In this document: positions 797 through 61,269 of the stretch, piece after piece
Layout of the letters: each line of letters begins with the position of its first letter
Numbering within the stretch: position 1 is the first letter of the stretch
Source: an uncultured Chloroflexia bacterium
GTDB lineage: Bacteria; Chloroflexota; Limnocylindria; Limnocylindrales; CSP1-4
Reading direction: 5' to 3'
Assembly (NCBI GenBank): GCA_963763775.1
Contig: CAVXPZ010000001.1
Location: 1,507,473-1,571,472 of the forward strand
Length of the DNA stretch: 64,000 nt
Notes under the pieces: generated by a model
Databases searched by the model: none
The model's input: the letters and a program-made list of their open reading frames with translations, nothing else
What the model was told of the DNA's origin: nothing
Program-made: the position numbers and the translations under genes

Positions 797-803
797 CAGT
801 CGG

Positions 804-2977: not shown

Positions 2978-3070
2978 CCCTGGAGCTCGCGAGTTACTTG
3001 AACCGGTCGTGCCGGGCCCTTCGGATGCGGTTTGAGCCGGCGTCCGAAGCGTGCTCCCGTGCGGAAGGGA

Positions 3071-4096: not shown

Positions 4097-4156
4097 GTGT
4101 GTTGCTCCTTCTTGTCGGATGTGCCGCACGTGCCGTGCGTCTAGAGTGGAGAAGCT

Positions 4157-6096: not shown

Positions 6097-6110
6097 TATG
6101 CCAGCACGTC

Positions 6111-6129
6111 ATCCTATTGTCTATAGGAT
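6111..6129. promoter_or_regulatory. Palindromic operator candidate between the divergent ABC operon and GntR
   Basis: ATCCTAT-N5-ATAGGAT perfect inverted repeat in an AT-rich divergent intergenic region. Confidence 0.55.
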
Positions 6130-6186
6130 AGAGATGATTTTGATGCTGTATGGTAGCCGTCGAGTACTCGACACGCGAAGGCCGAG

Positions 6187-9077: not shown

Positions 9078-9170
9078 CCGCCGACGGTCAGGCCGCCGCG
9101 GTCGGCGTCGGCACCGTGCGCGAACGGGACTGGCTCTTTGACGGCCATGCGCACATCGCGGAGGGTCTCG

Positions 9171-10136: not shown

Positions 10137-10297
10137 GCCAGTTCCCTGGTCAACCACGCCGGGATCGCTCCAAAGAAGGATGCGCTCGACGTCTCCAGGG
10201 CTGTCGCCCGGGATCACGCGGCGCCCGCGCCGCCCGGCTCGGACCCGCGGATCACGTCGCCGCCCATCCCACCGTTAGAACGGAGACCGCGTCCCGC

Positions 10298-12105: not shown

Positions 12106-12198
12106 CCGGGCTCGGCGGTCACGCTGCGACGGCCCGGGCACCGACTCGCGGTATCTTCGGAACGGCGTCAACCGACGCACACATGTAGAGGTCACGCC

Positions 12199-13122: not shown

Positions 13123-13251
13123 CGCTACCGGGTGATCTGCTCCGTCACGAGTTCATCATGAACCTCAGGCGCTCGCCCGCCGGGCCCATCGCCAGGACGT
13201 GGCCTCCGGCGTGCTCGACGGCCGTCGCGCGGCCGATCGGACGTCGCGCCG

Positions 13252-14316
13252 ATGCGGTGTGAGCGGCCGGGACCGTACGATGTCGGCGACAGGAGGTGGG
13301 ATGCCGTCGATGACGACGCCCGAGGTCGACGACTGCCCGGCGATGGACTCGAACAGCTGGTTCGCCCCGCGATCGAGGCGGGTGGTTCAGGCCGCCGCGA
13401 TCATGCGCGAGTGGCGTCTGGCATCGGCCGGCTTGGATCATGGTCGGACGACCTTGGGTCCCTGCCCGGCAAAGCCGGTCTGGGGCTTGCCGTGGGCCTG
13501 TGGCTCTTGATCATCGTGCTGTCGGCGCGCGGGCAGGTGTGGAGCGCGGCGCAAGAGGCCTGGTGCTACTGGATCCCCTCGATCCTGGATCCCTATCGGC
13601 AGTCCGACTGGACCAGCCCGGTCGCCTACGTGTACTCACCGGCCTTCCTCCAGGTCATCGCGCCGCTCCGGGCGCTCAGCTGGCCCATGTTCGTCGCCGT
13701 TTGGACCGCCCTGCTCCTCGGTGCCGTGACCTATCTGACGGGCCTTCGGCTCCTCTGGATCGGCGTCCTGGTCGCCGCCACAGAGCTGTACGGCGGCAAC
13801 ATCTCGCTCTTCCTGGCCGTGGCCATCGTGCTCGGCTTCCGCTGGCCGGTGACCTGGGCGATCGTCATCCTCACCAAGGTCACGCCCGGCATCGGGCTGC
13901 TGTGGTTCGCGGTGCGGCGTGAGTGGCGGAACCTCGGCATCGCCCTCGCCGCGACCGTCCTCGTGGCCGGCGCATCGGCCGTGGCCATGCCAGTGGCGTG
14001 GCAACAATGGGCACACGTCCTGATGGCGAACGCGGGTCGCGACGGGACATGGGCTGCCGTCCCGATCGCGTTGTGGATCCGGTTGCCGATGGCCGTCGCG
14101 CTCGTGGTGTGGGGGGCGAGGACCGACCGGCGCTGGACGGTCCCGGTCGCGTCGATGCTGGCCTTGCCCGCACTCTGGTTCGGCAGCCTCAGCATGATCC
14201 TCGCGGTGATCGCCCTCCGGCGGATGGGTGAGCCGGCCGGATCCGCCGTCGGTCGTGCCGACCTCGTGGACGATCAGGGAGCGAAGCCCGCCGCCCCGAC
14301 CCTCGTGCGCGCATAG
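13252..14316 (+). CDS. GT87/DUF2029-like multi-pass membrane glycosyltransferase (start uncertain)
   Basis: YVYSPAF, ELYGGNISLFLA, TKVTPGIGLLW and many TM helices. Confidence 0.7.
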   Translation: MRCERPGPYDVGDRRWDAVDDDARGRRLPGDGLEQLVRPAIEAGGSGRRDHARVASGIGRLGSWSDDLGSLPGKAGLGLAVGLWLLIIVLSARGQVWSAAQEAWCYWIPSILDPYRQSDWTSPVAYVYSPAFLQVIAPLRALSWPMFVAVWTALLLGAVTYLTGLRLLWIGVLVAATELYGGNISLFLAVAIVLGFRWPVTWAIVILTKVTPGIGLLWFAVRREWRNLGIALAATVLVAGASAVAMPVAWQQWAHVLMANAGRDGTWAAVPIALWIRLPMAVALVVWGARTDRRWTVPVASMLALPALWFGSLSMILAVIALRRMGEPAGSAVGRADLVDDQGAKPAAPTLVRA

Positions 14317-14322
14317 CCTCGT

Positions 14323-15141
14323 TCAGGGCCGACGCGGACCGCCCGCGTCCATCGACAGGTGCGGGTCCCGGGTCCTGCCCAGATAGGCGATGACCGGCAC
14401 CATCAGGAGGGGCAGGTCCTTCACGCTGTACAGCCAGCCCTCAGGACCGCGCGCATCGACCACCGCCCGCAGCCAATCCGGGATCAGCGGGATGAGTGGC
14501 AGCGTGAGGACGACCAGGATCCCGGCCGTGATCCACCAGCCGCGGGTCCGGATGCCGATCAGGGCGAACGGCAGGATGGATGGCTTGAGCAGGATGAGCG
14601 CGCCCGGCCACTTCCAGCGCAGCGCCGCCGCCACGAGCGCGGCGAAGACGATCACCGGCGCGCCTCGGAAGTAGAGGACCGGTTGATCCGGAAAGGCCAG
14701 GCAGACGAGGATCGCGGCCACCGCCCACAGCGCGGGTCGCCACGACCAGACCACGTAGCCCAGGAGCCCGACCGCGAGGACCCACCAGAGCTGGTACGGC
14801 AGCACCAGGAACGGGATGAACAGGTAGAGCATCGTCGGCGGGTAGAGCACGTCGCCAAGCACGATCGGGTACGGGCCGTGGAGCTGACGAGGCAGGTAGA
14901 AGCCGTCGCCAGCAAGCCACGAGCGGCTCGCTTCGACGTAGCCACGCAGGTCGGCGCCCCAGTCGGTCCCGCGGAGATCCGTGTACGGAAACCCGATCAG
15001 CAACTGGGCGACGATCGCCACGCTCGCGACGCCGATCACCGCGAGCGTCGCACCGCGGGCCACGCGGTCCCACGGGACGCCCGTCAGGACGTCGCCGGTC
15101 GCCCCCGTCTCTCGCCGCGATGTTCCGAGATCCTCTGACAT
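14323..15141 (-). CDS. GT87/DUF2029-like multi-pass membrane glycosyltransferase
   Basis: DLRGY..A...WLAGDGFY, LYPP, LLKPS and TM helices. Confidence 0.7.
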   Translation of the reverse strand: MSEDLGTSRRETGATGDVLTGVPWDRVARGATLAVIGVASVAIVAQLLIGFPYTDLRGTDWGADLRGYVEASRSWLAGDGFYLPRQLHGPYPIVLGDVLYPPTMLYLFIPFLVLPYQLWWVLAVGLLGYVVWSWRPALWAVAAILVCLAFPDQPVLYFRGAPVIVFAALVAAALRWKWPGALILLKPSILPFALIGIRTRGWWITAGILVVLTLPLIPLIPDWLRAVVDARGPEGWLYSVKDLPLLMVPVIAYLGRTRDPHLSMDAGGPRRP

Positions 15142-15203
15142 CCACGCTCCCGATCGTGCCACCGAGCCTAGCACCGGGCTTCACGCGCCCGCGATCCGCC
15201 ACA

Positions 15204-15232
15204 TTGAACCGATCGCGGCCTGACGCTGGACT
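15204..15232 (+). promoter_or_regulatory. Degenerate sigma70-type promoter in front of tRNA-Gly fragment 1
   Basis: TTGAAC (15204-15209), 17 bp spacer, TGGACT (15227-15232). Same position relative to the fragment as TAGAAT before fragment 3. Confidence 0.4.
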
Positions 15233-15237
15233 CAGGT

Positions 15238-15289
15238 CCTCCCGAGCGGGAGTAACTCAGTCGGCAGAGTGTCACCTTCCCAAGCCGAC
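15238..15289 (+). repeat. tRNA-Gly(CCC) 5'-half fragment 1 (att-like scar)
   Basis: CCTCCCGA-GCGGGAGTAACTCAGTCGGCAGAGTGTCACCTTCCCAAGC-CGAC. Two mismatches to 27329-27376, then divergence. Confidence 0.9.
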
Positions 15290-15369
15290 ACCCTTTGGCT
15301 TGTGACGGGCGACGCCGAAGTGGACTGGAAGCTGCTCGAGCATGTGGGCATGCTGCTGCACGCGAGTCG

Positions 15370-17430
15370 CTAGGGCTTCGACTCGCTGATGACCTTGGCG
15401 TCGACCGTGGCGTTGACCTTGTCCTGACTCGCCCCCACGGCGACCGTCTGCTTCACCGTCTTCTTACCGCCCTCCGGCTTGAACGTGAGGTCGGCGAGGG
15501 AACCATCCGGCTGGAAACCGCCCAGCAACGCGATCATGAAGGGGCCGGTCATGCCGTCCGGCCCGAGCTGCAGGAATTGACCGAGGCTGATGCCAAGGCA
15601 GCTCCCTGAGTCCAGGACCTTCGACGACTTGTCGTAGTTGACCTTCCAGTCACGCGGCACGGTCTCGTCGAGGACGGGATTCGACTGACCCTGCCGCCCG
15701 ATCTCGGCGATCGGCCGCTTGGCGGTCAGGACGACGGTGCCCTGCTCCTTGAACGGTGTCGGACACGGGACATCGCCGTTGATCCGCATCGTGCCCTTGA
15801 CCGGTCCTGACCCACGGTAGGTCCCATCGGGCTGGAGCTCCAGGACGACCTTGGGGATCGAGATGGTCGTCGTGTACGACACACCGAGTGCACTGACCGT
15901 GAGCGTCCCATTGATCCCCACCTCGAGCTTCTTGGCGCCGGTGTGGAAGATCAGCGTGAGTTTCGCGATCCCCTGCCTCGACGTGGCGGTGAGCCGCACG
16001 TAGGCATCCTTGCCGTCCTGGTCCGGCGCGACGTAGCTCAGGCTCCCGGGTGGTTTCTCGACGGTCTTGGGGTCGAGCGACTCCTTGCCATCCAGCTCGG
16101 CCACGATCTTGACCGGCGGCACGGTCTGGCCGTACCGATGGTCGAGCCCGACATCGAACTGGGTCGTGCTGCCCTTGTCGACCTCCTCGGTGTGGGTCGG
16201 CTTGGCGTTGTTGGCGAAGGCACTCATCGGGATGTAGCTCGGCGCGGTCACGATCATGCAGCGGGTATCGCGCCAGACTTCCTGCGCGTGCCGATACGCG
16301 GGATTCATCGTCACGAAGTCGTAGCCGGCGCTGCCGGTGATCTGCCCGATCATCGCGGGGGTCACGTCACCGGACCCCTTGACGTCGGTCTTGGCGCCGC
16401 TCCAGCCCCCGACGGTCCCCGAGCCCTCGGCGATCGGGGCCGGGACGCCGTCGGAGATGCCCGTCGTTGCGACGGTGTACTCGCCGTCGCTGGTCGTCTC
16501 GTCGCCGTCCGTGGTCGTGGACCGGTGGAACTTCTCGTGGTGCGTATAGGCCTGGGTGATGGCTCCGAGCGTCGCGGTATCGTCCGTCGTGCCTTCGAAC
16601 GTGCTCGATTGGTCGCTCGAGCCCGTCGCGTTCGATCCGCTGCCGCCGGGCCCGCCCGACGTCGATGCCGTGATCTGGATGGACGTGTCGAGCGAGGCTG
16701 GCACGAGCCCGGCCGCGTTCGGGCAGGCATCGAGCTGACCGAAGAGTCGCGTCTTGTTGCTGTCGGTGAGGACCGTCTGGCCGGTCGCGGTGTCGGTCAC
16801 GGTCTCGTCGATATCGGTCGTCATCTCCAGCTTGCCGACGGAGCCGGACGTCGAGTAGGTGACGACGGTGTGGATCGTCGCCGTGCTGCTTCGCCCGCCA
16901 TCGGTCTGGGTGAACGACTTCGTTCCGAGGTCGTTGACATGGGGGTTGTCGGCCGGGTACCCGATGATCTCGACCGCGCCGGCCATGAGCGGCCCGAACT
17001 GGGTACGGGACAGGTCGGGTGGGGACTTGAATGCCGCCTCGATGATCGCCGACTTCGCATCGGGCAACGTTCGCCTCGAGATCGCCCCGGTCTCCGTGTC
17101 GATCAGGAGGGCGAGGATCGCATCGGCATCAGGCCCGAGCGACTCGCGGATCCCCATCGCCTCCAGGAGCGCGAGATGGTCGTTCACCGGATCGAGCGGC
17201 TGCCCCTCACGAGAGGCTGCGTCCGCGACGACCGCGTCCAGGGTCGCCTGGAGCGAGCCATCGGCTGGCGGCGCGATCGGAACGGCCGGCGAACTCACGG
17301 ACCCGCTGGCTACTGGACTCGAGGCGACGATCGTGGTCGTCGCCGCCGGGCTGGGCGTGGCGACGTTCGGGCTCCCGCACGCGCTGAGGATGACCGTGAC
17401 CGTCATCAGCAGGCCGAGCAGCCGCAACAT
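15370..17430 (-). CDS. Large hypothetical lipoprotein
   Basis: MLRLLGLLMTVTVILSAC lipobox, S/P/A linker and T/S/G-rich beta-strand-like body. Family not recognised. Confidence 0.8.
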   Translation of the reverse strand: MLRLLGLLMTVTVILSACGSPNVATPSPAATTTIVASSPVASGSVSSPAVPIAPPADGSLQATLDAVVADAASREGQPLDPVNDHLALLEAMGIRESLGPDADAILALLIDTETGAISRRTLPDAKSAIIEAAFKSPPDLSRTQFGPLMAGAVEIIGYPADNPHVNDLGTKSFTQTDGGRSSTATIHTVVTYSTSGSVGKLEMTTDIDETVTDTATGQTVLTDSNKTRLFGQLDACPNAAGLVPASLDTSIQITASTSGGPGGSGSNATGSSDQSSTFEGTTDDTATLGAITQAYTHHEKFHRSTTTDGDETTSDGEYTVATTGISDGVPAPIAEGSGTVGGWSGAKTDVKGSGDVTPAMIGQITGSAGYDFVTMNPAYRHAQEVWRDTRCMIVTAPSYIPMSAFANNAKPTHTEEVDKGSTTQFDVGLDHRYGQTVPPVKIVAELDGKESLDPKTVEKPPGSLSYVAPDQDGKDAYVRLTATSRQGIAKLTLIFHTGAKKLEVGINGTLTVSALGVSYTTTISIPKVVLELQPDGTYRGSGPVKGTMRINGDVPCPTPFKEQGTVVLTAKRPIAEIGRQGQSNPVLDETVPRDWKVNYDKSSKVLDSGSCLGISLGQFLQLGPDGMTGPFMIALLGGFQPDGSLADLTFKPEGGKKTVKQTVAVGASQDKVNATVDAKVISESKP

Positions 17431-17503
17431 CGTCGGAGTATGCCCCTTCAGCCGGGCTTGCCGGCGGCTCCAGACGGCGTACACGCTCCGCGCTAGACGG
17501 AGG

Positions 17504-17581
17504 CCTCCGAGCGGGAGTACTCAGTCGGCCGGACCAGCTTCCCACGCCGAATGTCGCGGGTTCGATCCGACTCATGCTCCA
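17504..17581 (+). pseudogene. Degenerate near-full-length tRNA-Gly copy (fragment 2)
   Basis: CCTCCGA-GCGGGAGTACTCAGTCGGCCGGACCAGCTTCCCACGCCGAATGTCGCGGGTTCGATCCGACTCATGCTCCA aligns with the intact tRNA but its stems are broken. Confidence 0.8.
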
Positions 17582-17681
17582 CTCCTGGTTCCTCGACACA
17601 ACCCGGTTCGATTCACCGACGGGAAATCGTACTCTGGGACTTGACTGCGGCCAGGCATCCGGTGAGGCCTCGCCTGAGCCG

Positions 17682-19076
17682 TCAGCGCCCAGTCGGCTGC
17701 CAGTAGAAGGTGCGGCCAGGATCACCTGGCTCGGACATCGTGGTGACCCGGCCGGGCGCGTCGATGGCCGCCAGCGCCTCTGTCAGGTCAGCCAGGGGCT
17801 GGGCATCGTGCGGCGTGACGTCCAGCGCGACGCTCCAGAACCGGGCGTCGTCGCCCGAGCCGCCGCCGACACGAAGATGCGTGTCATCGAGCCAATCGAC
17901 GCAGCAAAGCCGGCGATCGGTCGCGTCGGATCCGGTCTCGATGCGCTCGACGTGGCCAGACGCGAGATCGGCGACGTAGACGGTCGTCTCCGGCGACGTA
18001 TCCGTGACCCACCGTTGCCAGGCGAAGGCGATCCGCGTGCCGTCGGGTGACCAGCGCGGCCCCAGGACCGAAACGTCCGCATCGAGCGCGACCTTGGCGG
18101 GATCCGTGCCATCGGCGTTCACGATCCAGAGTTCGCGGGTGTCGTTGCTCTCGTCCAGGACGGTATACGCGATCCGGCTCCCATCCGGTGACCAGGCGGG
18201 CAATTCCAGCGCCAGCTGCCGATCGCGTGTCTGATCCTTCACGAGCGTCTTGCCCAGGTCAAGCTGCTGGCGGGTCCGCAGGTCGAGCGTGCCCAGCGTG
18301 TGGCAATAGGTTCCGGCCGTCTCGGCGATGGCGGCGGCCAGGACCACCTCGACCCCGCCGATGACACCGACCGTCGATCGGGCCGAGCAGTGCACTGTTC
18401 GGACGAAGACCACGTGCTCGCCGTCCCCGGCGACGTCGAACGCGGTCCACTGCTCCGGTTCAGGGACCACGACACCGGTGTCGACGAAGTCGCCGATCGT
18501 CTCGCCGACCTCGGCGACGAGGATGTGGCCGGAATTCGCGACCAGCCGCGTACCATCCGGGGACCACGCGACATCCAGGGCACGATCGGCTTGGAGCTCG
18601 TGCGCGCCGGTCCCGTCCGCACGCATCGCCCACGTGCTCGGCAGCCTCGACACCAGCGATCCCCCGCTCGAGGGCACCGATCCCCGACTGCGGGCAAAGG
18701 CGACCCAGGGAGCTGGACCGACAGCGTCGGGCGAGGCCGCCGGCGTGGAGGAGGGCCGTGCCGTGGACGGGGCCGCCGATGGCGTCGCCGAGCCTTGGGG
18801 CAGAGCTGCCGGCGCGACCGGCGGCATGCGGACCAAGCCGGATCCCACGGCCACGGTCCCGACCAGCGCGGCGACCACGAGTACGACGACGGCCGTCAGC
18901 ATGAGCCGCCGGTCGCCCGTGCCGCGTGATCGCACGGGGATCCCCAGCTGGACGGCGGTCAGGCGTTCCGTGTGCCCGAGCGCAGCCGCCCGCTGCTCGA
19001 TCACGGTCCAGAGCTCCGGCATCGGTGCTCGGTCGAGCGTGGCGAAGCGGTCACGGAGGTCAGGCATCGTCGTCAC
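17682..19076 (-). CDS. Putative membrane-anchored anti-sigma factor with TolB-like beta-propeller
   Basis: Short cytoplasmic N-terminus, one TM helix, P/S/A linker and repeated WSPDG motifs. Overlaps the 3' end of the ECF sigma gene. Confidence 0.75.
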   Translation of the reverse strand: MTTMPDLRDRFATLDRAPMPELWTVIEQRAAALGHTERLTAVQLGIPVRSRGTGDRRLMLTAVVVLVVAALVGTVAVGSGLVRMPPVAPAALPQGSATPSAAPSTARPSSTPAASPDAVGPAPWVAFARSRGSVPSSGGSLVSRLPSTWAMRADGTGAHELQADRALDVAWSPDGTRLVANSGHILVAEVGETIGDFVDTGVVVPEPEQWTAFDVAGDGEHVVFVRTVHCSARSTVGVIGGVEVVLAAAIAETAGTYCHTLGTLDLRTRQQLDLGKTLVKDQTRDRQLALELPAWSPDGSRIAYTVLDESNDTRELWIVNADGTDPAKVALDADVSVLGPRWSPDGTRIAFAWQRWVTDTSPETTVYVADLASGHVERIETGSDATDRRLCCVDWLDDTHLRVGGGSGDDARFWSVALDVTPHDAQPLADLTEALAAIDAPGRVTTMSEPGDPGRTFYWQPTGR

Positions 19077-19551
19077 CCAGGAGTTGGCGGAGCCGGCGCC
19101 GACCGCGACTAAGGTTGGCCCGGACGGCCAGTCCGTTCGATCCCAGTCGCTGCGCGATCTGACTGATCGGCAGGTCGGCGTAGTAGAAGAGCACGACCGC
19201 GGCGCGCTGACTCTCGGGGAGTCGGCGCAGGGCCTCGAGGAGGTCAGGATCGGCGTAGCGGTCCACGTGGTCGGTGGTCGGGGTGGACACCTGGCCGGCC
19301 ATCCGGCCGGCCTTCAGGGCGCCCGAGGCGATCCGGAACGCCGCCCGCCACGTCCAGGCCTGCGGGTCGCGTACCGCCGCTCCCCGACGCAGGACTTGCG
19401 CATAGGCCTCCGCGACGGCATCGCTGGCGATCTCCGGATCGGCGGCGAAGGCGTAGACCGCGTGCCAAAGCCGATCGGCGTCCGAGCGGTAGATCGCCTC
19501 GACCGTCTGCTCTGCTTCGATGACCGGGACCGCGCTTTCCATCATCCGCAT
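19060..19551 (-). CDS. ECF RNA polymerase sigma factor
   Basis: Region 2 (ASDAVAEAY..WTWRAAFR) and region 4 (LPESQRAAVVLFYYADLPISQIAQRLG..VRANLSRGRRRL). Confidence 0.9.
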   Translation of the reverse strand: MRMMESAVPVIEAEQTVEAIYRSDADRLWHAVYAFAADPEIASDAVAEAYAQVLRRGAAVRDPQAWTWRAAFRIASGALKAGRMAGQVSTPTTDHVDRYADPDLLEALRRLPESQRAAVVLFYYADLPISQIAQRLGSNGLAVRANLSRGRRRLRQLLGDDDA

Positions 19552-19707
19552 AGGGACCGTTTCTGGTCAAAAGGTGACATCCGAGGGAGCCGGGCTGAGG
19601 GTCGACGCGCCGGTGCCCCGGGTCGTGGTGACCGCGGGCGGCCCGGAGGCTAGATCGTTGCTCCGGGCACATCACGCCTCGTCCGGCTGACCTTGGCTCG
19701 CATCAAC

Positions 19708-19774
19708 TAGAATGTCTGCCTCCCGAGCGGGAGTAACTCAGTTGGCAGAGTGTCAGCTTCCCAAGCCGACTGTC
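19708..19774 (+). repeat. tRNA-Gly(CCC) 5'-half fragment 3 with -10 box
   Basis: TAGAAT at 19708-19713. 19719-19766 is identical to 27329-27376 (48 bp), followed by CGACTGTC versus TGAATGTC in the intact gene. Confidence 0.92.
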
Positions 19775-19856
19775 TGGCCCCCTGCCGACCTGGCCCAGCC
19801 GAGCCCTCCCGCCTCGTGGTTTGAGAGTTGTGAGAGTCCCCTGAGCCGGTGGACGA

Positions 19857-19888
19857 AGAGAACTAGTTGCGCATGCAACCAGTTCTCT
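19857..19888. repeat. 14-bp inverted repeat (hairpin or protein-binding site)
   Basis: AGAGAACTAGTTGC-GCAT-GCAACCAGTTCTCT, one mismatch. Confidence 0.75.
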
Positions 19889-20017
19889 AGCCTCGCGAGC
19901 AACGGCGCGGCAAGCTCTCCGATTGTTCGGAAGTGCTCTGTGCTGGGCACCCACGCCTCCATCAGGCAACGCGGCACAACGGCAGTTCACCACCAACCTG
20001 GGGCAGTGGACGTCGGC

Positions 20018-20794
20018 CTACGAGTGCGACTCCTCTTCCGGCTCCTCGTACCACCTGACACGGTCCCCGATCCTCGCCCGGGCCTTCCAGGCAAATGACT
20101 TTGGAGCGGAGCGAAGGCGGTCGACGAGCTCCTGGGCCTGGCTGGCAGCGTCATATCGGGGTGGCTGGCTGAAGGTCAGTTCGACGGGTACGGGTTCCTC
20201 TGCGACGAACCGGACAAGCGTCTCGAGGGTCCCGGTCACGGTCCGCCACCACCCCCAGTCGCCACGTGTCAGGCGAACGATCGGCGCCGTCGTGATGCTG
20301 TGGCCATCCTGATTCGAGTCGGAGTCTGCGAGTGGCAATCCCGAAAGTAGGACAGTCGCATCGATCAGGTCCTTGCGGGTGACCTTCACCACTTGCAGCT
20401 TGCTGAGCAGCAAGTCCGTGGGCGAGATCGTCGGGCCCGGTCCGGCGAGCGACGACCTGAGGTCGAGGGTGTGGCACATCTCGAGTCGGTCGACGATCAC
20501 GTCCACCGGCCGACCACGCTCAGGATCGACGGCGTACAGCTGCTTGTGACCGGCGGCGGCGTTGTACCGGCGATCGGGCACGTACCCTTCGGCCTCCAGC
20601 ATCTCCAGGACGCGTCGCCGGCCCGCCGATGTGGTAGCCATGTCGAGGTCGCGTCCTGGCCGCTCGCCACGACCATGCCACCCTGGCACGAGGAGCTCGA
20701 CCGCTGCTCCGCCCAGCACCTGCAGTGGCACGCCACGGTCAGAGGCGATCGAAACGAGCCGCAACGCCTCGGCGCGCAGGCTAGCCTCCGTCAT
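20018..20794 (-). CDS. Uncharacterised nucleotidyltransferase-fold protein
   Basis: LGGAAV...RDLDM (GG..DxD), a third acidic residue in VDVIVD, and DLLLSKLQ..KDLID. Confidence 0.7.
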   Translation of the reverse strand: MTEASLRAEALRLVSIASDRGVPLQVLGGAAVELLVPGWHGRGERPGRDLDMATTSAGRRRVLEMLEAEGYVPDRRYNAAAGHKQLYAVDPERGRPVDVIVDRLEMCHTLDLRSSLAGPGPTISPTDLLLSKLQVVKVTRKDLIDATVLLSGLPLADSDSNQDGHSITTAPIVRLTRGDWGWWRTVTGTLETLVRFVAEEPVPVELTFSQPPRYDAASQAQELVDRLRSAPKSFAWKARARIGDRVRWYEEPEEESHS

Positions 20795-21813
20795 CGGGTC
20801 TCCGGGGCGATGCCGGACGATTCCCGCACGATCAGGCGGAGCTCGATCGACTCCGTGCGAGGCTCGCCACCCTCGATGAGATCGATCGCCATGGCGACGG
20901 CATCGGCGCCGATCCGCGCCGCCGGGATCTCGACCGTCGTCAACGCCGGCTCGAGCATGCGCGCAAGCTCGATGTCGTCGAAGCCGACGATCGAGACATC
21001 GCGCCCGACCTTCAGGCCGCGCTCGACGGCCGCCTTGTACGCGCCGGCGGCGAGAAGGTCGTCATCACAGAGGATCGCCGTCGGCCGGTGTTCGATGTCG
21101 AGGAGCTGGCCGGCGGCACGACTCGACGACTCGATGTCGAACCGGCTGGTGACCTGAGCCTGCGGGTCCAGCGGCAGTCCCGCTTCGTCCATCGCGGCGA
21201 GGTAGGCGCTGCGCCGTGCGTGGAAGGTCTCCTGGGCGAAGTTGGCACGCAGGTGGGCGATGTGGCGATGGCCGAGGCTCACGAGGTGCTCCATCGCCCG
21301 ATGGGCACCGCCGTAGATGTCGAGCTCGATGCTCGCGGCGTGCGAAGCATGCGCTTCCACCAGCACCACGTTCGCGCCCAGCCGCTGGACGTCCCGACTC
21401 GGCACCGGGTCGGCCGCGTAGACGATGCAGCCGTCGACGGCGCGAGCGGACATGATGTTCGCGAGCCAGTTGATCCAGTTCGGATCATCGCCGATGTCCA
21501 GCAGCATGACGGCGTTGCCGCGGGCTCGAGCGGCGCGCTCTGCCCCCAGCAGCACCGATGAGAAGAATGGGTTCGCGACATTGGGGACGACGAGAGCGAT
21601 CGCGTGGGTACGCCCGAGACGCAGGTTGCGCGCGGTCGCATTGGGCTGGTAGCCGAGCTCCTGCGCGATGCGCAGCACCGAGTCGCGCTGTTCGTCCGAG
21701 ATTCGCCCGTCCGACTTCCCTGTCATGACGAGCGAGACGGCCGCCTGGGAGACGCCCGCCGCGCGCGCGACGTCTCTCCCGGTCACTCGACGCTCCGCCT
21801 TCCTGGATTGCAT
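20791..21813 (-). CDS. LacI family transcriptional regulator
   Basis: VTGRDVARAAGVSQAAVSLVM, LGYQPNATARNL, NPFF, SIVGFDD, PALTTV. Confidence 0.93.
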   Translation of the reverse strand: MQSRKAERRVTGRDVARAAGVSQAAVSLVMTGKSDGRISDEQRDSVLRIAQELGYQPNATARNLRLGRTHAIALVVPNVANPFFSSVLLGAERAARARGNAVMLLDIGDDPNWINWLANIMSARAVDGCIVYAADPVPSRDVQRLGANVVLVEAHASHAASIELDIYGGAHRAMEHLVSLGHRHIAHLRANFAQETFHARRSAYLAAMDEAGLPLDPQAQVTSRFDIESSSRAAGQLLDIEHRPTAILCDDDLLAAGAYKAAVERGLKVGRDVSIVGFDDIELARMLEPALTTVEIPAARIGADAVAMAIDLIEGGEPRTESIELRLIVRESSGIAPETR

Positions 21814-21842
21814 CGGACCAGAGGGTATCAAGCGCCCGACCG

Positions 21843-22295
21843 TCAGTCGCCACGACCGAGCGATGCCCCGCCGAACCCGAACGGCAGCCAGTCCGGGATG
21901 GCGCCCCAACGGACGCGATCCGTGGTCAGCGACGCGTTGATCACGAGCACCTCCGGACCGAACTCGGCCAGCAGCTGCCGACAGACCCCGCAGCATGACG
22001 CCGGATCCTCATCACGAGTCACCGTCACGCACGCCCGGATGCCATGGGCTCCGCCGGACAGGGCCGCTCCGATCGCTGCTCGCTCAGCGCACAACGTCGC
22101 GGCGTAGGCCGCCAATTCGATGTTGCAGCCGCCGGTGATCGCCCCGCGATCGTCGAGCACCGCGGCACCCACTGGATAGCGCGAATACGGCGCCCGCGCA
22201 TGGCCTGCTGACTCGACCGCCACCGCGAGCAGCTCCCCGATCGAGGGGAGCTGGCTCGCGAGGGTCGGGTCGGATCTGAACCCCTCGTGGATCAT
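21843..22295 (-). CDS. cdd: Cytidine deaminase
   Basis: APYSRYPVGAA, GCNIE, CAERAAI, CGVCRQ (zinc ligands). The usual PC is seen as CC. Confidence 0.82.
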   Translation of the reverse strand: MIHEGFRSDPTLASQLPSIGELLAVAVESAGHARAPYSRYPVGAAVLDDRGAITGGCNIELAAYAATLCAERAAIGAALSGGAHGIRACVTVTRDEDPASCCGVCRQLLAEFGPEVLVINASLTTDRVRWGAIPDWLPFGFGGASLGRGD

Positions 22296-22299
22296 CTCG

Positions 22300-23932
22300 T
22301 CAGTCCGGCGGGATCTCGGCGTAGGCGAGGTCGATGTCGTACCCCTGGCGACGCCGTAGCGCCCGGCTGACGAAGTAGATGGCGATCCCGATCGGGAACA
22401 ACGCGATGCTGCCCCAGAACATCCCCGGGTTCACGTCGATGTTCACGCCGGAGCCAGGGTCGCGCACCATGTTCACGACGAGCAACAGGGCGCCGATCGC
22501 ACCGAGCACGCCGACGATCGTGAGGACCGGCACTTTCCCGATGAACCAGCCGACCGGCGACATCTCGTACAGGCTTCGGAACTTGTACGGGATGATCGCG
22601 GCCGCCAGACACGCCGAGCCCGAGGGCGCTGACCTGGCCGAAGGCACCGACCACGACCGTGAAGTAGCTCGTGTACGCCCAGGCCCAGGCGACCACGGCT
22701 GCAACGACCGTCACCAGGATCACCGCGTTGACGGGCGAGTTCGAACGCTCGCTGACCTTGGACAGGCTGTCCGGCACGACTCGGTCCATGGACCAGGCGA
22801 AGATGCACCGCGTCATGAGCAGGAGCGACATCGCGACGGTCGGGAACAGCCAGGACGCGAAGCCGATGATGATCATCGAACCCGACGATCGGGTTGCCGC
22901 TGGCGATGGCCGCCGTCTGCATGAACGTCGGGGCGCCGGCCAGCCCGGTGGCGTCGGCGCTGGCGGCTGCCAGCGGCCCCGAGGAACGACTGGCCGAGGC
23001 GCGTTCACCGCCAGGAGGGCCACCACCATCGCACCGACGAAGGCGATCGTGGCCGTGACCGGACCAGCCAGCAGCTGCGGGTCCGGGCAGACCTCACCTC
23101 GCCCGCGAAGTACGCGGAGCCCAGGTAGAACGGCATCGAGAACGCGGTCCAGGACACCGCCAGGATGGTGATCCCAAGATCGAACGGCGCAGCGGGTGCG
23201 TAGCCATTGGTGGCGGCGGACTGCGATGACCGCTGCGGACGCGTGCTGCACGCCCGTCGCGGTCGCGACGTAGGCGTCGAATGCAGCGATCGTGTTGGCT
23301 GGGGTCGAGGTGATGAGCACGACCGCGGTGACGGCCAGCCCGATGAGGCTCACGACCATCGTGTACTTGAACACCTTCAGGACGGTCCTGATGTTGCCCA
23401 AGATGAACAAGAGCGCGAACCCGAAGACGAACAGTTCACCGACGACGAAGATGGCGAACGGTGATGCGAGATCCGTCGACGCCTGCACCAGGCCGGGATT
23501 GTTCAGTTCGACCCCGAGGAACTGGGCCAGCGGCGACAGACCCCAGATGCAGAAGAAGTAGCCGGTCGACGTCAGGAACACCACGTTGAACAAGACGAAC
23601 ACGAAGTTCGCCGCGAAGCCGATCGATGGATGGATCGTGCGGCTGATGAACACGTAGTCGCCGCCGCTGCGCTTCATGACGGAGCTGGCGATCGCATACG
23701 TCCCGACGATCGGTATGGCGAGGACGAAGCCGATCGCCATCGTGAGGAAGATGTTCGCCCCTGGGTAGAACGCCAGAACGAGCCCGAGTATGAAGGCGAG
23801 CATGATCGGGAACGTCGCGACGTACATGTTGACGAACGACGCGTCCGTTGCCGAGGCTGCTCGCACCAGCCCTGACGACTTGCGGGCGAATACCGGGACG
23901 GCTCCCGTGCCAGACCCTACGCTGCTATCCAC
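22300..23932 (-). CDS. APC family permease (frameshifted)
   Basis: VFARKSSGLVR, RSGGDYVFISR, R..FAWSMDRVVP and C-terminal GYDIDLAYAEIPPD, spread over several frames. Confidence 0.8.
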
Positions 23933-23959
23933 ATCCTCCTCCTCTCCTTCTCGACCGAC

Positions 23960-24886
23960 TCATGCCACGACCAACTGGCACTGCTCCACTTTCCCGGGCC
24001 TGACCTGGATGACCGCGCCGAGCAGCGATCCCTGGTCGTACTCGCTCCCGGGGTTCACCACGGTAGATCCTCCGACCTTCACGACCCCGCGACTCTCGTG
24101 GATGTGCCCGTGAAGGCTGAGCAGTGGCTGGTACTGACGGAGGCCTTCGGCCACCGCGGTCGACCCGACCGGGATGAGATCCGGGGCGCCGGCGACGAGC
24201 TCGACTCTGAGGTCGTCCCCGAGCCGGGGCGCCACGTCGAGCCCTGACCCGTACGGAGGGACGTGGATATTCCAGATCGTCTGCGCCCGGTCGCCCGTCT
24301 CGAGGGCCTCCATGAGGAGACGCAGCTCAGACTCAGGCTTCTCGCGGTTCGTATGCCAAGGTGTTGGATTGCTCCATCCCACGCTGCCGAGCCAGAAACC
24401 GTCGATCTCGGTGATCCCGTCGGGCGGGCTGATCATCGGGCCCTCATTGAAGATGGGCGCGAGCTCATCGAAGTCGTCGTTACCGAGGCCCATGACGAGG
24501 CGGGTCGATGCCCCGATCCGGTCGCGGGCGAGCTGCACCCAGTCCCACGCTCGGCTGACGATCAGGTCGCGCAGCGTGTCCTCGACAAGCTCATGGGATG
24601 CTTGGAGCTGCGCCACGAACTCGCGATCGGTGCGGACGGAGTATGCCCCGTGGTCCGCGAGGCGGCCTTCGAGGGTGACGAGCTCCTCCTCCGTCGTCGC
24701 CTCGAAGTTGGCGCCCTGGAATGAGGCGCGCCAAGCGCTGGACTCGCGCACGATCGGCACGAGGTGCTTGCCCGCAGCATCGCCGCCCATGATCAGCCAG
24801 TCCGCCTTGTAGAACGCGGCCGCGTTCAGGAACTTCCTGAAGCAGCGGTTCGAGCCATGCAGGTCGCTGGCGAAGAAGATCCGCAT
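23960..24886 (-). CDS. Calcineurin-like metallophosphoesterase (Icc-related)
   Basis: SDLHG, GGD, GNDD, HVPP, HGHIHE, NPGS. Confidence 0.9.
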   Translation of the reverse strand: MRIFFASDLHGSNRCFRKFLNAAAFYKADWLIMGGDAAGKHLVPIVRESSAWRASFQGANFEATTEEELVTLEGRLADHGAYSVRTDREFVAQLQASHELVEDTLRDLIVSRAWDWVQLARDRIGASTRLVMGLGNDDFDELAPIFNEGPMISPPDGITEIDGFWLGSVGWSNPTPWHTNREKPESELRLLMEALETGDRAQTIWNIHVPPYGSGLDVAPRLGDDLRVELVAGAPDLIPVGSTAVAEGLRQYQPLLSLHGHIHESRGVVKVGGSTVVNPGSEYDQGSLLGAVIQVRPGKVEQCQLVVA

Positions 24887-24905
24887 CGAACGCTCTGACG
24901 GGGGG

Positions 24906-24952
24906 TTGACTGGATACAGAGGAAGTTATACGATTGACGTCCGATGTCAATC
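24906..24952 (+). promoter_or_regulatory. Sigma70-type promoter overlapped by a 21-bp palindromic operator
   Basis: TTGACT (24906), 17 bp spacer, TACGAT (24929). GATTGAC-N7-GTCAATC at 24932-24952. Confidence 0.6.
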
Positions 24953-25900
24953 CCTGATCTGGATCGCTCGCTCAGCCGCAACGCGGCAGGTCATCGACGG
25001 CCTGTTCGCTGCGGCGGCGACCGGGTTACCGCGGACGTGCTCGAGTGGTGGCACGTGGACGGCTATCTCGACGACGTGACGATCGCTCGCCGGTTCGCCG
25101 GCCACGACCAGCTCTACCCATACCTGGATGGTACTACCGCGCCTGCCGGACCTCGACTTCACGCCGGCGCGAATTATCGTCAGCGGCGACCTGGCCTCGG
25201 TCGAGTGGGCCGAGCGCTGCCATCTGCGAGCGCGTTCGACGGCGTGGCGGCGGACGGGCGAGCTGCGTTTCCGGGCATGGACCTGTTCGGCATCCGCGAC
25301 GGCAAGGTCGCCTGGGAGTCGAGCTGGTACGGCGACGCGTGGATGCGGCGCGACTCGAGGAACCCACGAGGCCCGGATGCGCCGCCGCCGCCGCTCCCAC
25401 GGCGCGGATCCTGGGAAGAGCCTTCGCGTCCCGACGAGCGGGGCGAGGCATCGAGCGCGGCGACGCGTGACGTCATCGACCGACTGTTCGCGGCCGAAAC
25501 CGGGGACACCGCACGAGTGCTCGAGCTGGTGGGCGAACGACGGCGTTCTCGACGACGTGACGCTTGCGATGCGTGTGCGCGGACACGATGAGTTACGCGT
25601 GTACCTCGACGAGTACTACGCCGGCTTGCCGACCTCGACTTCACCCCCCGGCGCATCCTCGTGGACGGCCCATGGGCCTCGTGAGTGGGCCGAGCGTTGC
25701 CACCTAGACGGTCCGTTCTTCGGCGCGTGCTGATGGGCGCGAACTACGGCTCCAGGCCGTGGACACGTTCGAGGTCCGTGACGGAAGGTGGTGTGGAGTC
25801 GGCTGGTATGGCGACGGCTGTTGATCGATCGGCTCCGAAGTGCGGACCGATCCGAGCTGCCAGCGGAGTTGCGTTCGGAGTGTCGTGGGATGAGGAGCGT
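24944..25900 (+). CDS. Tandem SnoaL/ester-cyclase (NTF2-like) domain protein, heavily frameshifted; boundaries approximate
   Basis: Two internal repeats: DDVT.A.R..GHD.L..YL..YY..LPDLDFTP.RI.V.G....EWAERCHL...ADGR....D.F..RDG.V.WES. Confidence 0.6.
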
Positions 25901-26039
25901 GGGCATGACAGAGCGCATCGAGTGGGTCTCGCGAACTGCCGATTGCTCGGGGTCGATCGCGACGAGTTCCAATGACACGCAGCGTTCGCAGGTAGGACGA
26001 TCGGACGGCATCACCTAGAGCCAAGACCGTGGCGCTCCT

Positions 26040-26435
26040 CTTGCGTTGAAGGCGCGCGCACGTTCGTCCCAGCTTCCTCGCCCGCGAGAGCGCGGGCGCG
26101 ATCGGAAGGGCTTGGCCCAGGCGGTCGGCGACCGCCTGCTCGAAGTCCTCGATCGGCATCTGCCACAGCGCTGATGCGTACGCGAAGAGCTGTCCGACGA
26201 CCGCGCGACGTATCTCGGGGTTCGCGCGGAGCTTGCACTCGACGAGGAGCACCGAACCGTCGAGGCCGATGCCGACCAGGTCGGCCGGGCCCGCGCCCGT
26301 CTGGACCTGGCGCGCGACCACCATCGGACCCGCTGACGCGCCAGGGAGGAGGTCAGGACTCGCGGCGAGCAGCTGTTCGAGCGCTTCCTCGTTGGGATAC
26401 GCGCTGACCTCCGGGCGCATGCCAGGCTCCCTCAC
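26040..26435 (-). pseudogene. PD-(D/E)XK (NucS-like) nuclease fragment, C-terminally truncated
   Basis: E..LEQLL...PDLL...GPADLVGIGLDGSVLLVECKL..NPEIRR.VVGQLFAYA, after which the protein-like sequence degrades near 26040-26090. Confidence 0.6.
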
Positions 26436-26468
26436 CGGCGCGGCGCATCAACAGCATCCCGTCCGACC

Positions 26469-27328
26469 CTACTCGCTGTCGCCGTGCGCGCGGCGCATCA
26501 GGTCGACGAGCAGCTCCTTGCTCTTGGCGAGATCGGCCTTCGTGAGCCGGATCCGGTACTGGCCGTAGCGCGCGCTGTACTCGAGCAGCTCGATGCCCGC
26601 GGTCTCGAGCTGCGCCTGCGTCTCCTCCGAACGCTCGACCCGGAGTTCCGCGACGACCCAGTCCTTGCGCGGCCTGAAGGTCATGAAGTTGTTCGGGTGG
26701 CCACCCTTCGCGAGGCCGATGTAGAACTTGTTGTACTTGAGCTCGAGCCCCGGATCGATCTCGCGGAGCCAGCCGAGCAGCTCGTCGATCATGCGCGAGC
26801 GTCTGCTTCGTTGCCGCGCTTCTCCCAGTAGGCGCGGTCGGTGACCTCGGCGATCTCCTCGTCCTCGTCGACGAGGCCGCGTTGCACCTCGTCGATCACC
26901 TTGCGTGAACACGAGCGAGACGTTCTCGCCGAGCCTGGATGGCGCTCAGCTGGATCGCGACGAGCGGGATCGCACCGTTGAACAGGCGCGATCACGTTCA
27001 GGAACCGGCTCGTGATGTCCTCGGCGACGATGACGGCGGCGTGGTCGTACTGCGGGTAGCGCTTGCGCTCGATGTCCCAGTACTCGATGGTGCGGATGAT
27101 GTGCGCCTCGTCGGTCTTGCCGAGCTGGATCTCGACCTCGTAGCGGTGGTTCGTCTCGGCGTCCTGGAGGAGGAGGTCGAGACGACCGGCCGGGGCTGGA
27201 TCCGCTCGCGGTCCTTGAGGACGAGGTCGCCGAAGCCCGAGGAGCGACGGGTCCTCGCCGATCCGATCCTGGAGCCAGCGCTCGTCGAGTTCGGGGTGGG
27301 TCTTGAGCCAGATGCGCTCGGGCTTGGC
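26469..27328 (-). pseudogene. PD-(D/E)XK-type nuclease / DUF5655-like protein; start missing, frameshifted
   Basis: AKPERIWLKTHPEL..., GRLDLLLQD..RYEVEIQLGKTDEAHIIRTIEYWD, C-terminal LKYNKFYIGL..NNF. The frame runs into the tRNA leader with no nearby start codon. Confidence 0.7.
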
Positions 27329-27336
27329 CCTCCCGA

Positions 27337-27412
27337 GCGGGAGTAACTCAGTTGGCAGAGTGTCAGCTTCCCAAGCTGAATGTCGCGGGTTCGAACCCCG
27401 TCTCCCGCTCCA
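27337..27412 (+). tRNA. tRNA-Gly (CCC)
   Basis: GCGGGAG/CTCCCGC acceptor stem, ACTC/GAGT D stem, TCAGC-TTCCCAA-GCTGA anticodon arm, GGTTCGAAC T loop, T discriminator, encoded CCA; 76 nt. Confidence 0.97.
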
Positions 27413-27554: not shown

Positions 27555-28892
27555 ATGACCGAGAGCGTCACGCCCGGCCCGCACGGACCGCTCGCCAGCG
27601 TCCTGGAGATCCGCCGGGGTCCCGATGATGCGCACACCGGTGGCCTCGAGCACCGGGAGGCCCTGATCTACACGCTCGGCAAGGCCGCCGAGCTCGAGCA
27701 CCTCGTGATGCTCCAGTACCTGTTCGCGGCCTTCTCGCTCAAGCAGAAGGTCGACGAAGGACTCACCACCGAGACGCTTGCCGCCGTTCAGCGCTGGCGC
27801 GCGACCCTCCTGGGGATCAGCGCACAGGAGATGCTCCATCTCGCGCTCGTCCAGAACCTGCTGACGGCGGTCGGCGCTGCCCCGCGTTTCGCCCGCCCGA
27901 ACTTCCCGATGCCCGCCTACGCCTACCCGGCCGGTGTCCGGATCGAGCTGGTGCCGTTCGGCGAGGCCGCCCTCCGTCATTTCGCCTTCCTCGAGCGCCC
28001 GGACGGGATGGACGTCGAGGATGCCGAGGGGTTCGAGGCCATCGCGCAGGCCGTGGCCCTCCCGCACGAGGCGCACGACGCGATCGTCCCCCATCTCCTC
28101 GAGTTCGACACCATCGGCCAGCTCTACCGCTCCATCCAGGCAGGCCTGGCGTACCTGAACGAGCGGCTCGGGCCGGAGCGCCTGTTCATCGGGCCACCGG
28201 CCGCCCAGGCCACCGAAGCGCATTTCGGTTGGCCGGAGCTCGTTGCCGTCACCGACCTCCCCTCCGCACAGCGAGCCATCGACACGATCGTCGAGCAAGG
28301 CGAGGGCGCCCGTGGCGAGTGGCGCGACGCCCATTTCGGGCGCCTCCTCGGCATCCTCGACGAGTACCTCGAGCTCAAGCAGGCGGATCCGACCTTCGAG
28401 CCGGCCCGACCGGTCGTCGCCGCCAACGTCCGGCCGCAGCCGAGCGGGGTCGTGGTGCCGTTGATCACCGATCCGGGCACGACGCGCGCGATGGACTTGC
28501 TCAACGTCGTCTACGAAGTCCTGCTCCAGCTGCTTTCCCGCTATTTCGCCAATACGGACGAGTCGCCGGAGCAGCTCAAGGTCCTGGCCGATGTATCGGT
28601 CGGGCTGATGTACACGGCCATCAAGCCTCTCGGCACCGTCGTCACCACGCTGCCCGTCGGGCCCCACCTGCCGGGGGTCACGGCTGGCCCCGGGTTCGAG
28701 CTCTTCTACCAGGTCGACTACCTGCTCCCCCATCGGGAGGCGGCGTGGGTCCTGATGGAGGAGCGACTGCGAGATGCGGCGGCGTTCGCCGTCCGCTGCG
28801 GCGAGCTATGTACGCCAGCCCTGATGGAGCCGCTGGCCAAGGTGGCGAGGTCGCTCGAGAAGTCCGCCGACCAGCTTCTGGCCGCGACATGA
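27555..28892 (+). CDS. Ferritin-like domain protein (VioB C-terminal-like family)
   Basis: AAELEHLVMLQYLFAAFSLK, QEMLHLALVQNLLTAVG..P, FLERP, TIGQLY, IVEQGEG, AHFGR. Confidence 0.85.
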   Translation: MTESVTPGPHGPLASVLEIRRGPDDAHTGGLEHREALIYTLGKAAELEHLVMLQYLFAAFSLKQKVDEGLTTETLAAVQRWRATLLGISAQEMLHLALVQNLLTAVGAAPRFARPNFPMPAYAYPAGVRIELVPFGEAALRHFAFLERPDGMDVEDAEGFEAIAQAVALPHEAHDAIVPHLLEFDTIGQLYRSIQAGLAYLNERLGPERLFIGPPAAQATEAHFGWPELVAVTDLPSAQRAIDTIVEQGEGARGEWRDAHFGRLLGILDEYLELKQADPTFEPARPVVAANVRPQPSGVVVPLITDPGTTRAMDLLNVVYEVLLQLLSRYFANTDESPEQLKVLADVSVGLMYTAIKPLGTVVTTLPVGPHLPGVTAGPGFELFYQVDYLLPHREAAWVLMEERLRDAAAFAVRCGELCTPALMEPLAKVARSLEKSADQLLAAT

Positions 28893-61266: not shown

Positions 61267-61269
61267 GCA

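Follow-up and report, generated by a model that had tools for sequence, protein, structure and literature searches.

A probable tandem stack of integrase-less islands at tRNA-Gly(CCC) in an uncultured Chloroflexota bacterium

Introduction

Cis-mobilizable elements (CIMEs) are integrase-less blocks that are flanked by attachment-site (att) repeats and lie in tandem with related elements, as in the accretion arrays of integrative and conjugative elements (ICEs). The present study concerns integrase-less blocks in a 64,000-nucleotide stretch of DNA, hereafter called the window, from an uncultured Chloroflexia bacterium (GCA_963763775.1), in which three incomplete or decayed copies of a tRNA-Gly(CCC) gene, separated by cargo genes, precede the intact gene.

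In the Islander report, 3760 of 3919 islands carry a 3′ fragment of the tRNA gene (tDNA) and 159 a 5′ fragment; the collection comprises 2083 anticodon-centred sites and 125 tandem arrays of at least two islands, accepts an upstream 5′ fragment as valid and demands an integrase for each island (PMC4383910). For the tycheposon islands of Prochlorococcus, the source describes integrase subclades that are each tied to one tRNA, growth at the tRNA-proximal end with newcomers displacing older elements, and scattered partial tRNA copies and degenerate remnants (10.1101/2020.12.28.424599). We consider it probable that the region between 15.2 and 27.4 kb of the window is a tandem stack of three integrase-less islands that arose through site-specific recombination within the anticodon loop of tRNA-Gly(CCC) and show the reversed, 5′-fragment configuration.

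Results

The intact tRNA-Gly(CCC) gene and its upstream copies

All coordinates refer to the window, whose own assembly (G000; 3.3 Mb in 4 contigs, 87% complete) is of the metagenome type. ARAGORN detected a sole tRNA in the window, tRNA-Gly(CCC) at 27337–27412 (+), which was found in a single copy among the 52 tRNAs of the G000 assembly. When a 40-nt pattern corresponding to the 5′ half of this gene was searched across the window, matches were obtained at 15246 (two mismatches), 19727 (no mismatch) and 27337 (no mismatch), and none in 100 shuffles that served as control. With the 8-nt leader CCTCCCGA included, the repeats start at 15238, 19719 and 27329 and extend over 48 nt up to CCCAAGC. 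An earlier note on this DNA, made from the letters alone, had listed four repeat copies at 15238, 17504, 19719 and 27329 of which only the last is intact, and this observation was confirmed; its description of the three upstream copies as 5′ halves held for copies 1 and 3, but not for copy 2, which is a whole decayed tRNA.

The three upstream copies and the intact gene all lie on one strand, and copies 1 and 3 break right past the anticodon loop. The 5′ half of copy 3 shows no difference from that of the intact gene, the two being identical over 48 bp and unrelated from the next base onwards. In copy 2 the variable loop and T arm (GAATGTCGCGGGTTCGA) were recognizable and a degenerate acceptor end was located at approximately 17581, although the D arm carries deletions and the T and acceptor stems are broken, and ARAGORN did not call it. 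After CCCAAGC, copies 1 and 3 both continue with CGAC and then with unrelated sequence, and the anticodon stem reads GCCGA in all three upstream copies as opposed to GCTGA in the intact gene; both peculiarities had been pointed out in the earlier note and were found again in the sequence. GCCGA corresponds to the anticodon stem's 3′ strand apart from a single change, which is what the half of a core site brought in by an element should look like.

The same footprint and its breakpoints in related genomes

The family to which the relatives belong is Candidatus Limnocylindrales (Chloroflexota), for which 301 genomes, G000 included, were counted; the tallies comprise four genomes that are unpublished (G121, G177, G231 and G238), each of which contributes a single match. 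The 5′ half was matched in 247 of the 301 genomes, with at least two matches in 59 (hand count) and a maximum of 13, and within the genus in 15 of the 24 other genomes. G005 possesses five 5′ fragments, all upstream of the intact gene and on the same strand, G015 a single one 22 kb upstream of the intact gene, and G016 two intact tRNA-Gly(CCC) genes, while in G207, G320 and G222 four to five copies each were found in one orientation. The cargo of the relatives' blocks is diverse: an enoyl-CoA hydratase occurs with a beta-eliminating lyase, and there are pieces of transposases, genes of the TIR/CHAT/SLATT/AAA kinds, those for TIR, CHAT and SLATT being of the defence type, and a set of catabolic and transport genes spanning 22 kb. 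No integrase was found in the blocks of G005, G015 and G016, the relatives within the genus, and no PF00589 match lay within 100 kb of tRNA-Gly(CCC) in the 24 other genomes of the genus.

Breakpoints were mapped by blastn-short with the leader plus tRNA (84 nt) as query. The 5′ copies end at query position 47/48, and the 3′ copies that relatives carry downstream of the intact gene (two in G005, one each in G011 and G017, four in G198) begin at 38–41. Both types of copy thus overlap in CTTCCCAAG, the anticodon loop plus one base on each side, which places the crossover there, the insert bringing either the 5′ or the 3′ part of the gene; a few junctions (G015, L055 and L170) lie up to 10 nt further 3′. 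The junction CCGACTGTCTGG that follows CCCAAGC in copy 3 was also found in 5′ fragments of G296 (L164) and G049 (L166), which represent two other species of the genus, and the copy 1 junction retains CCGAC.

The intact genes of G296 (L164/L169) and G049 (L166/L171) are situated 181 kb and 63 kb, respectively, downstream of those 5′ fragments that have the window-type junction, which would mark either very large islands or arrays with decayed inner copies. In locus L053 (G324:C57, 6231–7180) a 5′ half (6231–6270) and a 3′ half (7140–7180) are about 870 bp apart with no intact copy in the locus, and it looks as if this tRNA gene had been split by an insert that restored neither side. The 4.9-kb contig G016:C6, with an intact tRNA and an element-type upstream sequence, was considered as a possible circle, but its ends showed no overlap. 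A better dyad symmetry of the cassette junction than of the native tRNA was discarded, since 8 of 11 versus 7 of 11 positions, counted by eye, is not a meaningful difference. Public sequencing runs contained at most 17% of the sampled words; four of them yielded contig pieces of 150–450 nt, and as the joints had sides of no more than 34 nt and less than 95% likeness they were taken as noise with no bearing on excision, circles or misassembly.

A tRNA-linked integrase family in other genera

The earlier note had suggested searching for tyrosine integrases beside such tRNA fragments, and these were indeed found, in other genera and divergent to the tRNA. Locus L051 of G198 comprises a 5′ fragment (9574–9612), genes for PIN, MarR-like and DUF6036-like proteins, an integrase gene (12335–13375, −) and the intact tRNA (13463–13538), all genes of the element being antisense to the tRNA as is the cargo in the window. 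The integrase is a tyrosine recombinase of 346 amino acids (aa) with Phage_int_SAM_4 and Phage_integrase domains. In G207 (L050) a 325-aa integrase, 46% identical to that of G198 over the full length, lies 75 bp from the intact tRNA-Gly(CCC). Both score best, although below cut-off, against the XerC/XerD models, and reached 45.6 and 49.9 bits with the integron-integrase model, whose cut-off is 265. Downstream of the L051 tRNA (G198:C70, 13463–19658) four cassettes of 0.9–2.7 kb, coding for a peroxidase, a PIN protein, an alpha/beta hydrolase and an unknown protein, each end in a 3′ half, so that together with the integrase element upstream arrays occur on both sides of one gene.

Eighty homologue loci from public genomes were scanned for tRNAs. 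A divergent tRNA was present within 500 bp of the integrase start in 52 and a co-directional one in 16, whereas 5 had none and 7 were cut by a contig end; the homologue is hence beside a tRNA in 68 of the 73 loci not interrupted by a contig end. Four of the five loci lacking a tRNA belong to the tRNA-Gly(CCC) clade and gave no intact tRNA call, and in the fifth a tRNA overlaps the extrapolated integrase start. The target tRNAs comprise Gly-ccc, Gly-tcc, Pro-tgg, Thr-cgt, Thr-ggt, Arg, Ala, Val, Lys, His and Asn. All five of the closest tRNA-Gly(CCC) loci (L060–L064) have a 5′ fragment on the integrase side, 2.8–4.8 kb from the intact tRNA (one of them partly masked). In general, the integrase-bearing elements of other genera measure 3–5 kb, with a 5′ fragment at the boundary and the integrase head-to-head with the tRNA; an element at a tRNA-Ala reaches no more than about 1.6 kb. 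Two co-directional loci carry a 3′ fragment on the integrase side, which is the ordinary geometry. Taken together, the 5′ fragments in divergent and the 3′ fragments in co-directional loci indicate that members of the family approach the anticodon loop from both directions, with the 5′ side predominating. A homologue (E ≤ 1e-20, 33–54% identity) was also detected in 26 of 81 genomes of the window's genus, and all 12 integrase loci examined there are head-to-head with a tRNA. A literature search, supplements not covered, found no paper on this integrase clade or on islands of Limnocylindrales.

The attachment arms of the integrase-bearing elements recur in cassettes of G005 (same genus), G207 and G316 that have no integrase, namely GGCAGACGCT..GAGCGTGA..CGA upstream of the 5′ half, (T/C)CTGAGC after CCCAAG and, about 75 nt further on, CAGTTATACGCTG. 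In the element-type leaders of L026/L030 (G005) and L058/L059 (G207) the sequence ACGCT-N7-AGCGT makes up a stem of 5 bp and a loop of 7 nt, resembling an anticodon arm, and in these elements CAGTTATACGCTG is present on both sides of the core; both motifs may be extra binding sites for the recombinase or for accessory proteins.

Search for recombinases in the window

In agreement with what the earlier note had read from the letters, family, whole-genome and six-frame searches found no recombinase between the copies. None was found among the main open reading frames (ORFs) of the array with Pfam, NCBIfam and PHROGs. Over the whole G000 genome PF00239 gave no match and PF00589 matched four genes, of which two are Xer-like and some 0.8 Mb distant, the others being located at 54.8–55.2 and 61.4–61.9 kb of the window. 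Moreover, a hidden Markov model (HMM) of the integrase, built from 76 homologues and run with --max on the six frames of the window, matched only 54384–55281 and 60970–61956, well outside the array.

The sequence between 51000 and 64000, which contains a tyrosine recombinase split over two frames (54384–55281) and a second, unrelated one (60970–61956), has a low guanine-plus-cytosine content (53–64% versus about 70%) and is probably a separate island.

Promoter hexamers of the copies

The −10-like hexamers TGGACT, TAGACG and TAGAAT reported in the earlier note were found where it had placed them, at the position of the tRNA gene's own −10 box. Among the fetched loci of relatives, TAnnnT occurs between −26 and −10 in 20 of 28 intact tRNA-Gly(CCC) genes and in 6 of 26 fragments, compared with 2% of random 17-nt windows. 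A scan for promoters and terminators of the Escherichia coli type called none of the three hexamers, and the promoter argument is based instead on the comparison with relatives.

Cargo, flanks and the variable region

The coordinates of all features are collected in Table 1. The three blocks measure 2.2, 2.1 and 7.6 kb, close to the 2.2, 2.1 and 7.5 kb given earlier, and the statement that their cargo is nearly all antisense to the tRNA was borne out, as all likely genes except one are antisense; block C has a single candidate ORF on the + strand (24944–25591 or 25128–25733). At its N-terminus the 704-aa ORF of block A has a signal peptide with the lipobox LSAC and, after it, a linker rich in Ser and Thr, and is accordingly a predicted lipoprotein. 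Homologues of it were found in 8 of 300 other family genomes and in none of 19 of the same genus, never at the tRNA-Gly(CCC) locus, and a look-up in a protein atlas gave no usable match. Block B is an extracytoplasmic function (ECF) sigma factor module and block C a module for nucleoside use. The gene-poor end of block C corresponds to the position of the integrase in the integrase-bearing relatives, and the six-frame HMM search detected no integrase remnant in it.

Table 1. Features of the tRNA-Gly(CCC) array and its flanks (window coordinates)
Feature	Position	Strand	Description
Upstream part of variable region	1..15226		No recognizable tRNA fragments; older part of the same region
Copy 1	15227..15289	+	TGGACT 15227–15232; leader CCTCCCGA 15238–15245; 5′ half 15246–15285 (2/40 mismatches); junction CGAC
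Block A	15370..17484	−	704-aa ORF, no family match (Pfam, NCBIfam, PHROGs); likely true start ~17430
Copy 2	17494..17581	+	TAGACG 17494–17499; leader CCTCCGA; decayed near-full-length tRNA-Gly pseudogene 17511–17581 including 3′ half
Block B	17682..19551	−	ECF-type sigma factor 19060–19551, overlapping the start of a 464-aa PD40 beta-propeller protein 17682–19076
Copy 3	19708..19777	+	TAGAAT 19708–19713; leader CCTCCCGA 19719–19726; 5′ half 19727–19766; junction CGACTGTCTGG
Block C	20018..26912	−	Nucleotidyltransferase-like protein, LacI/CytR-like regulator, cytidine deaminase, permease, metallophosphoesterase, two unknown ORFs, DUF5655 protein
tRNA-proximal end of block C	26913..27328		~415 bp, no convincing gene
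Intact gene	27329..27412	+	Leader CCTCCCGA plus tRNA-Gly(CCC); canonical −10 missing upstream
Ferritin-like gene	27555..28892	+	Conserved downstream chromosomal flank, outside the array

Upstream of the tRNA, an anchor of approximately 8–12 kb that is common to G021 and G024, and shared in one gene by G007, ends at G000:C1:1500243, 7.2 kb before the window start. The anchor and the tRNA are 34.6 kb apart in G000; the corresponding values are 11.4 kb (G021), 6.9 kb (G024) and about 19 kb (G007). For the proteins encoded in the first 27 kb of the window, no true counterpart was detected within 20 kb upstream of the tRNA in 10 relatives, the exceptions being matches at the level of paralogues (28–34% identity) to the LacI-type regulator and the sigma factor only. 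The comparison of gene content upstream of the tRNA that the earlier note had proposed accordingly revealed a different content in every relative compared and no invariant order; with content and distance both differing, the whole stretch from anchor to tRNA is a variable island. Recognizable tRNA fragments are confined to its tRNA-proximal 12 kb, and a profile of 52 copies detected no further decayed 5′ fragments between the anchor and copy 1.

On the other side, the ferritin-like gene starts 143 bp past the tRNA, and its product, 87% identical in G007 and 76% in G017, is likewise encoded after the tRNA in these two relatives. A 2.1-kb cassette with a 3′ half at its end separates the tRNA from the ferritin-like gene in G017, so that the window represents the empty state of the downstream side. 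Further downstream (28939–33108) lies the gene for a 1389-aa protein combining AAA_16, a LuxR-type helix-turn-helix, a 4Fe-4S ferredoxin and adenylate/guanylate cyclase domains, part of which also adjoins the ferritin-like gene in G017.

Discussion

We interpret the directly observed repeats and their breakpoints, the variable cargo, and the integrase family with its geometry in relatives, together with the integrase absence here, as the outcome of successive insertions at the anticodon loop of tRNA-Gly(CCC). The attachment site of an incoming circle would have two unequal sides, the first made up of the promoter, the leader and the tRNA 5′ half and the second of a short stem-like half-site, GCCGAC (GCCGACTGTCTGG in copy 3). 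Recombination with the chromosomal gene would then join the 5′ half of the element to the resident 3′ half, giving an intact gene, and strand the previous promoter and 5′ half upstream, repeated events displacing older blocks away from the tRNA. The enzyme would most likely be a member of the family of Xer-like tyrosine integrases with a SAM-like N-terminal and a catalytic domain, which is common in this lineage and in related genomes is encoded about 90 bp from its target tRNA, in divergent orientation and within small elements that have a 5′ fragment at their boundary. That an integrase of such a kind carried out the recombination is well supported, and we infer that this very clade was involved. 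The earlier note had likewise seen the copies as recombination footprints rather than an old tandem duplication, which agrees with the same geometry around unrelated cargo in relatives, and had placed the crossover in or next to the anticodon loop, where the 5′ copies end (47/48) and the 3′ copies of relatives begin (38/39); the stacking that it described, with promoter, leader and 5′ half brought in and left in front of the intact gene, recurs in relatives as well.

As G000 has no such integrase, the blocks would be either remnants that have lost it or passengers of an integrase acting in trans. Loss is favoured by the truncated integrase pieces that adjoin 5′ halves in G324 and by the way in which remnants generally pile up beside tRNAs, and action in trans by several integrase-less cassettes of one genome that keep both arms around unrelated cargo. 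The order of insertion is likewise putative.

Several findings weigh against this interpretation. The best matches to the relatives' integrase family in G000 are its two Xer-like genes, at 26–32% identity, and no member of the family was found there. None of the 12 in-genus integrase loci examined is at tRNA-Gly(CCC), and tblastn (E ≤ 1e-3) revealed no family homologue in any fetched tRNA-Gly(CCC) locus of the genus. Five genomes from two other genera, four of which carry the window's anticodon-stem variant by 5′-half match, also showed no homologue near tRNA-Gly(CCC), two of them holding one far from it. The conserved arm motifs, CAGTTATACGCTG and others, are absent from the window's blocks: CAGTTATACGCTG has two matches in the window, at 6432 and 60013, each with two mismatches and neither at the array, and the upstream sides of the blocks resemble the native promoter and leader. 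The link to the integrase family thus rests on the same site, side and breakpoint. In addition, the intact gene lacks a −10 box: it reads CGGGCT at the −10 offset, where the aligned relative G001 reads TAGAAT, and the dinucleotide TA is absent from the preceding 97 nt (27240–27336). This is left unexplained by successive insertion, in which the intact gene receives the promoter of the newest element. Finally, decay has gone further in the central copy 2 than in copy 1, contrary to what a strict order with the oldest copy furthest from the tRNA predicts, and this suggests that elements were also inserted at internal copies or arrived as pre-assembled arrays.

Among the other explanations, it is conceivable, though rather improbable, that the tRNA-Gly(CCC) anticodon stem-loop is the hub of a cassette system served in trans in this family, functionally an analogue of integrons built on tRNA halves. 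Integrase-less units, consisting of promoter plus 5′ half or of a 3′ half and furnished with conserved arms, would then be captured and reshuffled on both sides of the gene by a small helper element with a head-to-head Xer-like integrase. A dedicated integron-like system, in which the cassettes never had an integrase and tRNA-half sites were captured on either side by an Xer/IntI-like recombinase in trans, appears unlikely. It would account for the cassettes of G005, G207 and G316, in which about 100 bp are conserved at both ends of unrelated cargo and the ends match those of integrase-bearing elements, and for the cassettes of 0.9–2.7 kb that are separated by 3′ halves downstream of the tRNA in G198, G005, G011 and G017. 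Furthermore, the relatives' integrase has no arm-binding N-terminal domain and its best scores, all below cut-off, are with Xer and integron-integrase models, and arrays devoid of a family integrase exist in G000, G005, G015 and G016. However, the integrase of relatives is located within a mobile element bounded by a 5′ fragment (in all five close loci) and not in a fixed platform, and the integrase pieces of G324 fit the decay of once autonomous elements. The window's own blocks, moreover, lack the conserved arms and carry multi-gene cargo with its own regulators, antisense to the tRNA promoter. The term integron-style, used in the earlier note, consequently holds as an analogy only, there being no fixed intI/attI platform.

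The movement of the blocks by host XerC/XerD in the manner of integrative mobile elements exploiting Xer (IMEX) or dif modules, with the anticodon stem-loop as a pseudo-dif site, is very improbable. Each genome examined does possess two Xer-like recombinases, often with no other member of the tyrosine family, and the tRNA-linked integrases are themselves Xer-like, but a dedicated integrase clade sits at exactly the same site in relatives, and host Xer leaves unexplained that target specificity tracks the integrase subclade across many different tRNAs. An ancient tandem duplication of the tRNA that has decayed with its gene order unchanged, or misassembly at a short repeat, of which copy 2 as a whole decayed tRNA and the metagenome-type, 87% complete assembly might be suggestive, is hardly credible given that the perfect 48-bp match between copy 3 and the intact gene gives way abruptly to unrelated sequence, that the content between anchor and tRNA is different in every relative compared, that the same architecture occurs in many independent assemblies, and that a collapsed or chimeric 48-bp repeat would not produce copies differing in flanks and variants.

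When the successive insertion of islands at tRNA-Gly(CCC) is compared with known systems, the 5′-fragment islands of Islander show a similar layout: an intact tRNA and a co-oriented end fragment bound the island, the crossover is anticodon-centred and the 5′ fragment lies upstream. Here, too, a full tRNA and a cognate fragment of the same orientation were found on the same replicon, the fragment being an upstream 5′ end and the length within 2–200 kb, whereas the tyrosine integrase that Islander expects inside the island is missing from all three blocks. The earlier note had treated insertion from the 5′ side as a departure from the normal course; it is a configuration already known, with 159 of 3919 islands in that report (PMC4383910).

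In common with tycheposons, the locus has partial tRNA copies through a variable island abutting the tRNA, and the target tRNAs of tycheposons overlap with those of the relatives' integrase family (Pro-tgg, Thr-ggt, Arg-tct and Met-cat). The tRNA-specific recombinase at the tRNA-proximal end, in contrast, is absent from the window and G000, although present in relatives; the phylum is another one, and the hallmark replication genes of tycheposons were not seen in the window.

Direct attachment-site repeats flank blocks without recombination genes, as in CIMEs, but the vicinity contains no ICE or conjugation genes, and a promoter-bearing 5′ half of a tRNA serves as the attachment site; elements that carry an integrase and occupy the same site, the candidates for a CIME parent, were found only in other genera. 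The likeness to integrons consists in cargo units between repeated recombination sites and, in relatives, a simple Xer/IntI-like recombinase divergent from the site. Integrons, however, have intI beside attI, whereas neither the array nor the sequence adjoining the tRNA contains a tyrosine recombinase; their cassettes are promoterless and co-oriented, whereas the cargo here is antisense and includes LacI-type and sigma regulators; and their attC sites are folded, whereas tRNA halves would act here as putative duplex-type core sites. The array is not an integron but a stack of islands without integrase, in the 5′ tDNA-fragment configuration, which is known although rare.

The locus shows how accessory genes accumulate beside one tRNA in a little-studied uncultured lineage of Chloroflexota, and it points to a whole integrase clade that works mostly from the 5′ side of tRNA genes. 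Insertion from this side means that the element must carry a working promoter along with the 5′ half of the gene. If armed integrase-less units do move in trans, they would constitute a compact cassette platform with a site of about 40 bp that is present in many genomes, which would be of interest both for research on island growth and for tools for site-specific integration.

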